A stretch of DNA of 64,000 nucleotides from Clostridia bacterium (GCA_045660545.1 JAZREA010000021.1:86503-150502), one strand, 5' to 3'; counted from the first letter of the stretch, positions 2,677 through 3,031 are shown. The notes: a model not told the origin generated them from the letters alone. Program-made: numbers and translations.

Positions 2677-3031
2677 GGGCTGTAGCAAAATGCGCACAAC
2701 ACACAATGCGCTAAAAAACGTTTAATAAAGACTCTTTGTTAGGCAAAAACAGATGAAATAATATTTTTTGAGGAAGAAATTCGATGCTTTTCGAATTTCT
2801 TCTTTTTTATTGCATTGTGTTTTGAACAAACTTCGCCTCTCGACGTACCTGTGTACGCCTTCGGGTATCCGAAAGCAAGGCATGTGCCTGCTTTCGCTCA
2901 GTTTGTCCAATCTGCGCTATTTTTCGTCCGCCCCTAAAAAGAGGATGCAGCAAAATAGAATCATTTTGATGCATCCTCTTTAATTATATTCATTTTTTCG
3001 TCTTGTGTGTTCGGTGCATTTTTCTACACCC
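2677..3031. repeat. Composite intergenic repeat, copy 1 (MITE-like)
   Basis: Imperfect inverted ends 2677-2706 and 3003-3031. Internal hairpins 2773-2802 and 2938-2981. Core 2803-2940 is the reverse complement of a close homologue at 26433-26550. Confidence 0.8.

Follow-up and report, generated by a model that had tools for sequence, protein, structure and literature searches.

The window, a stretch of 64,000 nucleotides corresponding to positions 86503-150502 of contig C21 in a Clostridia assembly of 1.55 Mb and 26 contigs, carries two copies of a repeated element, each lying between convergent genes. Copy 1 occupies the gap between gltX and an xth-type exonuclease gene, and copy 2 is flanked by a nucleotidyl-transferase gene and, as assigned by Pfam, a GyrB/ParE-type gene. 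An exact-match look-up of the Xth protein for other strains gave no record. The coordinates of all features are collected in Table 1.

Table 1. Genes, element parts and solo boxes at the two element loci of the window.
Feature	Position in the window	Strand	Sequence, evidence or remark
gltX (glutamyl-tRNA synthetase)	1225-2670	+	ORF; Pfam tRNA-synt_1c (1.2e-101) and Anticodon_2
gltX stop codon	2668-2670	+	TAA; gltX is the box-side gene of copy 1
Copy 1, box (34 nt)	2677-2710	+	Starts 6 nt past the gltX stop
Copy 1, box 5' half			GGGCTGTAGCAAAATGCGCA; strand of helix P1, partner is the tail
Copy 1, box 3' half			ACACACAATGC; strand of helix P2, partner is 2812-2820
Copy 1, variable spacer	2711-2769	+	Subfamily-specific; quickest to change of all parts
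Copy 1, hairpin C and T-run	2770-2811 (stem 2770-2805)	+	GAGGAAGAAATTCGA/TCGAATTTCTTCTTT; terminator-like for gltX
Copy 1, P2 3' strand	2812-2820	+	GCATTGTGT (plus-strand reading); 95% Watson-Crick cells
Copy 1, conserved core	2822-2910	fold on minus strand	RNAalifold, pair counts, strand asymmetry
Copy 1, P3	2822-2832 with 2900-2910	-
Copy 1, P3a	2842-2848 with 2853-2859	-
Copy 1, P3b (variable hairpin)	about 2869-2896	-
Copy 1, further parts of the core		-	CCC/GG.G helix and two tandem G.A loops
Copy 1, tail	2913-2934	+	TGCGCTATTTTTCGTCCGCCCC; P1 partner of the box 5' half
Copy 1, A-run, hairpin A and T-rich tract	2935-2988		Sequence, repeat finder
Copy 1, hairpin A	2940-2979		AGAGGATGCAGCAAAAT.../...ATTTTGATGCATCCTCT; then TTTTT on the minus strand; terminator-like for xth
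Solo box	2997-3031	-	GGGTGTAGAAAAATGCACCGAACACACAAGACG; starts 3 nt past the xth stop
xth-type exonuclease gene	3035-3781	-	ORF; Pfam Exo_endo_phos (3.4e-32); convergent with gltX
Nucleotidyl-transferase gene	25457-26302
Truncated solo box	26307-26329	+	4 nt past the stop of the nucleotidyl-transferase gene
Copy 2, hairpin A	26342-26383		GGCTGTATCAAAATGA/TCATTTTGATACAGCC; terminator scan, repeat finder
Copy 2, extra internal box	26407-26431	-	Between hairpin A and core
Copy 2	26438-26672	+ (folded strand)	Repeat finder, covariance model
Copy 2, P1 5' strand	26438-26461
Copy 2, core	26462-26531
Copy 2, P2	26534-26542 with 26641-26651
Copy 2, hairpin C	about 26552-26579
Copy 2, P1 3' strand	26652-26672		Minus-strand box
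GyrB/ParE-type gene	26674-28665	-	Pfam; stop at 26674-26676 adjoins the copy 2 box

In the first-pass annotation, copy 1 had been described as a MITE-like repeat bounded by imperfect inverted ends and holding three modules, namely hairpin C, core B and hairpin A. All three modules were found, with core B extending from about 2812 to 2934. Both quoted end sequences are present as well, the left one (GGGCTGTAGCAAAATGCGCACAACACACAA) at 2677-2706 and the right one (GGGTGTAGAAAAATGCACCGAACACACAA) as the reverse complement of 3003-3031. The latter, however, is not the right end of copy 1 but belongs to the solo box at the xth stop, which is a truncated or second unit. The modules had also been said to recur in opposite order at 26307-26672. 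When copy 2 is reverse-complemented, it reads box, hairpin C, core, tail and hairpin A, with one more box behind the tail, so that the opposite order is merely the opposite strand of the same element. The repeat finder paired 2803-2870 with 26484-26551 (87%), 2896-2939 with 26433-26476 (91%) and 2936-2981 with 26341-26386, and the overall match of the core and hairpin A with 26341-26551 was 78-91%.

Two further kinds of feature were observed elsewhere in the window. A motif of about 40-50 nt (…TTCACTATTCACTAA…/TTAGGGAATAGTGAAGGGTGAATAG…) lies beside three tRNA gene clusters (9518-9568, 46376-46413 and 56325-56377), each time on the strand of the cluster, and may be a common upstream or downstream element of tRNA operons. 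The minus strand at 44026-44150 carries a ribosomal protein L20 leader (RF00558, 63.9 bits), which fits an infC-rpmI-rplT operon of the Firmicutes type.

The element had been taken for one of two copies. By BLAST, a box profile and a covariance model, we found 19 cores and about 34 boxes in the host genome. The copies went far past chance expectation (73-100% identity over 240-355 nt, BLAST E down to 1e-98), and the hits of the covariance model reached E values of 1e-21 to 1e-26. When the genome was searched against itself by BLAST, the other long repeats detected were paralogous genes, those inspected at contig ends were rRNA, and no multi-copy IS was found. We read the element as the main dispersed repeat of this genome. 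A gene fragment 94% identical between two contig starts (C4:1-713 and C18:1-713) was also seen; its 212-aa translation is presumably an N-acetylmuramoyl-L-alanine amidase, and it may be a duplicate of a prophage lysin.

The convergent setting noted for the two window copies holds across the genome. Fourteen of 18 cores lie in convergent gaps, compared with 13% of neighbouring gene pairs (p = 7e-10), and when calculated by intergenic bases, of which convergent gaps make up 21%, the enrichment of cores still has p = 4e-7. For 3-4 of the 18 copies there is no convergent gene to provide read-through. About 21 boxes start 0-9 nt past the stop codon of an ORF on the same strand, and the remaining boxes come straight after a tail. 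Overall, the box lies 0-12 nt from a stop codon or overlaps one, nearly always in the terminator space between convergent genes. The orientation of the copies did not correspond to GC skew, which was mixed. Genes adjoining the copies are unrelated housekeeping genes; gltX and the GyrB/ParE-type gene were confirmed by Pfam, and from their translations we take others to be ClpX, RNase Y, MgtE, glutamate dehydrogenase, aconitase and similar proteins. No functional theme was visible in the translations read, and a preference for particular genes was rejected, as the few gene ends in common (ClpX, ParE, ParC) amount to about chance by a rough estimate. Outside the window, at C13:7204-7281, C21:73655-73731 and C14:18531-18575, a box is followed by an A-type hairpin directly past a stop codon, with no core; such units arose from the element by deletion or else are its minimal form. 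A small dispersed family of stand-alone A-type palindromes exists as well.

On the strand of the adjoining gene, the full unit of about 300 bases consists of an A-run, the box, a spacer with hairpin C, a core of about 110 nt, the tail, a second A-run, hairpin A and a T-run. Nested pairings were visible in an alignment of the 19 host copies and about 100 copies from other genomes. Helix P1, between the 5' half of the box and the tail, is the best duplex in about 100 of 122 sequences, and its lineage-specific changes occur on both strands (GTAGGAAAAT/ATTTTCCTAC and GGGACTTTAT.../...TAAAGTCCC). Helix P2 joins the 3' half of the box to the segment past hairpin C, with 95% Watson-Crick cells and up to four pair types per column. 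Within the core, P3 (11 bp) surrounds P3a (7 bp) and the variable, dispensable hairpin P3b. Pairing was present in 98.9% of the cells of the core helices, versus 89.9% in shuffled alignments and at most 43% with slid partners; 13 core pairs showed compensatory change, and none of 500 shuffles reached the observed score. When RNAalifold was run without a model on 51 cores, it added a pair that alternates between G-C and A-U with 18 double and 0 single changes, together with a CCC/GG.G helix and two tandem G.A/A.G loops. Covariation was seen in P2, P3, P3a and G24-C92. Hairpin C is kept by compensatory changes in all lineages, and its T-run is present in only some of them, the host included. The outer pairs of P1 covary among paralogous copies, a sign that pairing is selected for at the individual locus, with some role for the host or for the transcript.

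The element has no coding capacity, since indels of 1-2 nt in the hairpin loops break every reading frame; a small ORF or toxin was ruled out on the same grounds. A sigma-54 or ECF-type promoter in the box or in GAAC-N16-CGTA was rejected as well, because by eye the spacing is wrong and the bases concerned are covarying helix positions. No Rfam 15 family scored at or near its gathering threshold, and relaxing the search to E <= 10 gave no family either, the best score being 20.7 bits against a threshold of 60, with all E values at 1.7 or above.

The helices are not equally good on the two strands. On the gene strand, most copies have A.C at position 2 of P3, position 2 of P3a and two positions of inner P1, where the other copies are Watson-Crick; the opposite strand has G-U at these positions. 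For P3 and P3a together, 123 A.C were counted on the gene strand versus 4 G.U. The minimum free energy of the whole element was also lower on the antisense strand in 92 of 97 copies. Both observations indicate that the selected fold is antisense to the adjoining gene, on the minus strand for copy 1 and on the plus strand for copy 2. Mutational bias probably does not explain the G-U asymmetry, because GC skew reveals no consistent replication strand. The folded strand reads hairpin A with its U-run, P1, core, P2, the hairpin C region, P2', P1', a U-rich tract and the complement of the neighbour's stop. No promoter for it was found upstream. Any transcript of this strand would have to come from read-through of hairpin A. 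This covarying, strand-specific fold and the class-wide conservation of the internal core over the ends had both been overlooked in the first reading.

Hairpins A and C match the form of intrinsic (Rho-independent) terminators, with a GC-containing stem-loop and a T-run. The terminator scan flagged hairpin C of copy 1 at 2770-2805 and hairpin A of copy 2 at 26342-26383; for hairpin A of copy 1, the TTTTT on the minus strand was read from the sequence, the scan having flagged only its copy 2 equivalent. Each gene flanking copy 1 faces a terminator-like hairpin, C with its T-run for gltX and A for xth, and the right end of the element is predicted to be a bidirectional terminator hairpin. It had been proposed that the repeat is a non-autonomous element supplying a terminator to each flanking gene. 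This is partly supported, in that the repeat is non-coding and multi-copy, has inverted ends and varies in occupancy, and the supply of terminators is suggested by these hairpins. In a relative, the plain terminator 3' of gltX (locus L172 of G002; GGAATTCGTT/AACGAATTCC) is similar to the element's hairpin C (GAAATTCG/CGAATTTC). Such hairpin modules may also occur by themselves, as terminators.

The extent of the unit could be read from genome G226, which holds at least 40 copies of 92-98% identity, for the most part located at contig ends, and in which most contig ends lie within an element copy; these copies are a recent burst. Among the young copies, identity begins at (T)AAAAGGGAATGTAAAAAAAG and stops after hairpin A (GGGCTGTAATAAATTTACAGCCCC) and TTTT. 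Since it runs through hairpin A, the mobile unit includes this hairpin. The box and the 3' arm of hairpin A, which match each other (AAAAGGGAATGTAA / TTACAGCCCCTTTT), form its outer inverted ends; an inner pair with the same motif consists of the tail and the 5' arm of hairpin A. This assignment agrees with the existence of stand-alone A-type palindromes and with the resemblance of hairpin A to the box of the respective lineage. Three of six young copies adjoin, or provide, the stop codon of a long ORF, from which we infer that the placement beside stops results from insertion and not from later selection alone. A T precedes the A-run in 65% of copies versus 32% in the background, a difference confounded by TAA stops, and TA is found on both sides in some young copies only. 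Given this confounding and flanks made up of A/T runs, a target-site duplication could not be shown. The host copies, at 73-86% identity, are old and may no longer move in this genome.

The young copies also revealed where the constraint lies. Over 19 of them, the P3-P3a core had 0 differences in 604 positions compared, versus 121 in 1298 for the spacer (p = 2e-21). Orthologous elements of sister species are 92-94% identical, compared with 85-90% for the upstream coding DNA. In one orthologous pair compared by eye (L071/L092), hairpin A changes fast via compensatory pairs. It is thus the interior that appears constrained rather than the ends, unlike in an ordinary DNA MITE. Internal variants of two kinds only were seen in G226. 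At least three copies (L223 at C50:10466-10973, L220 on C37 and L222 on C24) have, in place of the tip of P3a, a common insert that is non-coding and about 230 nt long, which extends the unit to about 500 nt. In one copy (L227, C16:95472-95662) the entire P3 core is gone and the box, spacer, hairpin C, P2 and hairpin A are kept; the deletion junction lies at a repeated CTAT, which suggests microhomology-mediated loss. No autonomous copy was found in G226, where hits to the left half only were contig ends.

Outside the host, a degenerate core pattern was found in at least 119 stretches from MAGs labelled Acutalibacteraceae, Oscillospiraceae, Candidatus Fimenecus, Congzhengia or simply 'Clostridia bacterium'. 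The covariance model R1 detected the core in 78 of the 151 genomes examined from the order. In a class-wide sample of 400 genomes, 89 had it, and these represent 45 of 217 genera. Across at least 13 clostridial families the core is nearly invariant, in contrast to the ends and the spacer, which vary. Related genera range from many copies down to none, the counts per genome being minimum values. We also looked for empty orthologous sites, and at the 3' side of gltX all 25 relatives with an orthologous gltX were free of the element, so that its occupancy varies. The seven nearest relatives (87-89% protein identity) have plain terminators at this site, and one relative has an A-type hairpin (GGATGTAGCAAAAT/ATTTTGCTACATCC) immediately past the stop. 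In two species with 85% identical upstream genes, different element subfamilies are located at the same gene end. At the loci L077 and L156, the upstream gene is common up to its stop (85% nucleotide identity) and the downstream DNA is unrelated beyond the element; the synteny break coincides exactly with the element. Carriage by phages was rejected, as the element was found in only 5 IMG/VR contigs and in no GenBank phage.

No transposase lies in the window, as had been noted before, and the five families tested were also absent from the whole assembly. There was no hit to Y1_Tnp/RAYT (PF01797) in the host genome and no TnpB, for which the best score of 18 bits was below the cut-off. Reverse transcriptase (RVT_1) was likewise absent from the host and bore no relation to element load across 41 relatives. 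An earlier suggestion that one end resembles IS1182-associated palindromes is unsupported, because the NF033551 transposase does not track the element: it is absent from the carrier genome and most element-rich genomes (G000, G226, G014, G016, G098, G120, G088 and G289) but occurs in G005 and G007, which are free of the element. The IS630 transposase is absent from the host, G226 and most element-rich genomes and present in element-free ones. No autonomous relative with the same ends was seen among the Y1, TnpB, IS1182 and IS630 families, nor was any protein gene associated with the element found beside any copy; all genomes compared are MAGs, in which repeats and transposases may be under-assembled, so that the absence of a transposase is weak evidence.

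On these grounds several known mobility systems were set aside. A partnership with IS1182 or IS630 was rejected for want of any association with the element, and a REP/BIME system with RAYT because PF01797 is missing and GTAG lies inside a stem and varies by lineage. The single-strand model of IS200/IS605 finds neither Y1 nor TnpB nor an orientation bias relative to GC skew, and an IS200/IS605 PATE or OMEGA RNA was dismissed on the absence of TnpA(Y1)/TnpB, the mixed GC skew and the lack of an Rfam match. Solo boxes resemble copies 5'-truncated on the folded strand, as retro-mobility would produce, but no reverse transcriptase is encoded here and none tracks the element; a class C group II intron or other retroelement was discarded since there is neither RVT_1 nor an Rfam intron match. 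Complementarity of the spacer to the flanks showed no excess over mismatched controls, which counts against a simple guide function, and a guide-like spacer was rejected accordingly. Searches of the literature did not find a description of this repeat family.

The original observation is thus confirmed and enlarged: the repeat belongs to an uncatalogued, class-wide family with an invariant core folded on one strand. We lean towards the view that its members are structured mobile elements that are non-autonomous and non-coding, behave like MITEs and double as terminator cassettes, with a core under selection. Such an element would insert into the A/T-rich tract between a stop codon and its terminator. 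Since it brings terminators along, the insertion would be tolerated, and the element perhaps even kept on their account. Hairpin A would terminate in both directions, with hairpin C as a second terminator for the upstream gene in the host, and neither convergent gene would lose termination on insertion. The selected part would be the internal core, which folds antisense to the box-side gene and comprises P3, P3a, P3b, the CCC/GG.G helix and the two G.A/A.G loops, with P2 and P1 as its closing helices. Most likely, this core would be a folded cis signal, either RNA or single-stranded DNA, read by machinery supplied in trans. The source of the constraint could be such a signal for spread or a role of the folded RNA at each locus, and the data fit both.

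If the latter role prevailed, the repeats might be a structured RNA family used by the host rather than a selfish element, a possible reading that we nevertheless find doubtful. The folded strand would then be made by read-through of hairpin A from the convergent gene and closed by P1 and the U-rich tract, and would serve as a cis insulator or back-up terminator shielding the opposing gene from antisense transcription, or would act in trans once processed. The G-U asymmetry, the tandem G.A loops and the invariant junction nucleotides do resemble an RNA under selection, the core is invariant in young copies and orthologous elements are better conserved than their coding flank, the outer P1 pairs are compensated among paralogous copies, and the folded strand has the order terminator, element, U-rich tract. 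However, the search for a promoter was negative and the position immediately upstream is taken by hairpin A and its U-run, the U-tract past P1 is weak in many copies, and the 3-4 of 18 copies lacking a convergent gene would have no source of read-through. Moreover, termination needs no three-way junction with invariant nucleotides, and the patchy distribution, the burst of at least 40 copies and the empty orthologous sites are marks of mobility. That mobility might itself be RNA-based, the core being the scaffold of a new mobility or targeting system, for instance a self-cleaving ribozyme or a guide or bridge-type RNA for an unrecognised enzyme, with the recombinase or nuclease encoded elsewhere and most copies being orphan RNA-only units. 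A core nearly invariant over at least 13 families beside variable ends, a three-way junction whose unpaired nucleotides are conserved and which has two G.A/A.G motifs, a hypervariable spacer next to a conserved scaffold, and a modular build in which variants gain or lose entire domains would all suit such a system. We still regard it as clearly improbable, given that no Rfam ribozyme, HEARO or IS605-orfB matched at E <= 10, TnpB and the Y1 transposase are absent from the host genome, spacer-flank complementarity is at chance level and no protein gene was seen beside any copy.

An ordinary DNA MITE of a DDE transposon, for which only the terminal inverted repeats matter and the fold is a by-product of nested inverted repeats, is very improbable indeed. 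It would account for the inverted ends (AAAAGGGnnTGTAA ... TTACAnCCCCTTTT) that co-vary between lineages, for the dispersed solo palindromes made of the two ends alone (the A-type hairpins) and for the A/T-rich flanks with T before the A-run in 65% of copies, an enrichment which is confounded by TAA stops. It does not account for a core conserved far better than the ends, nor for covariation and a one-strand G-U excess in helices other than the terminal repeats, and neither the IS630 nor the IS1182 transposase shows co-occurrence with the element.

An RNA-based mobility system, if true, would explain why the interior is conserved class-wide and why no classical transposase tracks the element, as well as the near-nucleotide precision of landing at stop codons and terminators; a catalytic or guide-like core would amount to a new mobility mechanism. 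Otherwise the family is still useful for annotation, as a terminator cassette, as a cause of assembly breaks and as a strain-typing marker. Its range takes in many families of Clostridia from gut and rumen. In the very small host genome, which showed no multi-copy IS, it is the dominant repeat, and it breaks MAG assemblies, as in G226, where most contig ends lie inside its copies. It is also a strong candidate for recognition as a new family, in Rfam or among repeats.

REP, ERIC, BOX, Correia and bcr1 are examples of small folded repeats that influence where transcripts end and how genomes rearrange, and none of them is known outside a narrow bacterial group. BOX elements are modular, with boxA, boxB and boxC. 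The repeats bcr1 of B. cereus, ERIC/IRU of enterobacteria and the pneumococcal BOX/RUP/SPRITE elements are 100-300 bp long, non-coding and multi-copy, with stable predicted folds, and are located in intergenic regions, mostly just 3' of genes, behaving like MITEs and often having no resident transposase (PMC3049150, PMC3184786). The Clostridia family is like this group in length, lack of coding capacity, copy number, placement at gene ends, fold, modules and MITE-like behaviour. It differs in that it has no similarity to any Rfam family, occurs class-wide (45 of 217 sampled genera) whereas theirs is a distribution within one species group, is best conserved in an internal three-way-junction core with invariant junction nucleotides, folds antisense to the adjoining gene and carries its own predicted bidirectional terminator.

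The Correia elements (NEMIS) of Neisseria are small, bounded by inverted repeats, intergenic near genes and co-transcribed with them, and may supply terminators or processing sites; their ends are well conserved, with a TA duplication, and no resident transposase is known. Our element shares with them its size, the inverted repeats at its boundaries, an intergenic position beside genes and the lack of a resident transposase, but it belongs to another phylum and its conserved part is the interior, not the ends. IS200/IS605 palindrome-associated elements and the OMEGA (TnpB/IscB) RNAs have a strand-specific fold and a conserved structured non-coding module by the element end, and include orphan RNA-only copies. 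The strand-specific fold and the lack of a clear target duplication are common to both, whereas here there is no TnpA(Y1)/TnpB in the genome, no GC-skew bias, no HEARO or IS605-orfB match and no guide-like flank match.

REP/BIME units consist of a palindrome of 20-40 bp with an unpaired GTAG (or CGTC) tag and are accompanied by a RAYT gene. The Clostridia element is similar in its palindromic units, which are clustered 3' of coding regions between convergent or co-directional genes, and in the GTAG of the host's box and the CGTC of its tail. Unlike REP, it has no Y1/RAYT gene in the host genome, its GTAG is inside the stem of the A-type hairpin and is replaced by GTAA, GTCG or GTTA in other lineages, and its unit is about 300 nt long with a complex core. 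Roles in termination and mRNA stability have been proposed for REP (PMC3733652). In E. coli, the sRNAs rrA, rrB and rrF lie between dual terminators and are made by read-through (PMC8144298). The folded strand of the element would have a comparable arrangement, bounded by hairpin A as a first terminator and by another, closing stem that has a U-rich tract. The E. coli sRNAs are three near-identical genes at the ends of rRNA operons, whereas the Clostridia element is a dispersed family of variable occupancy. REP biology (PMC3733652) and the dual-terminator read-through sRNAs (PMC8144298) are the nearest published analogies that we found.
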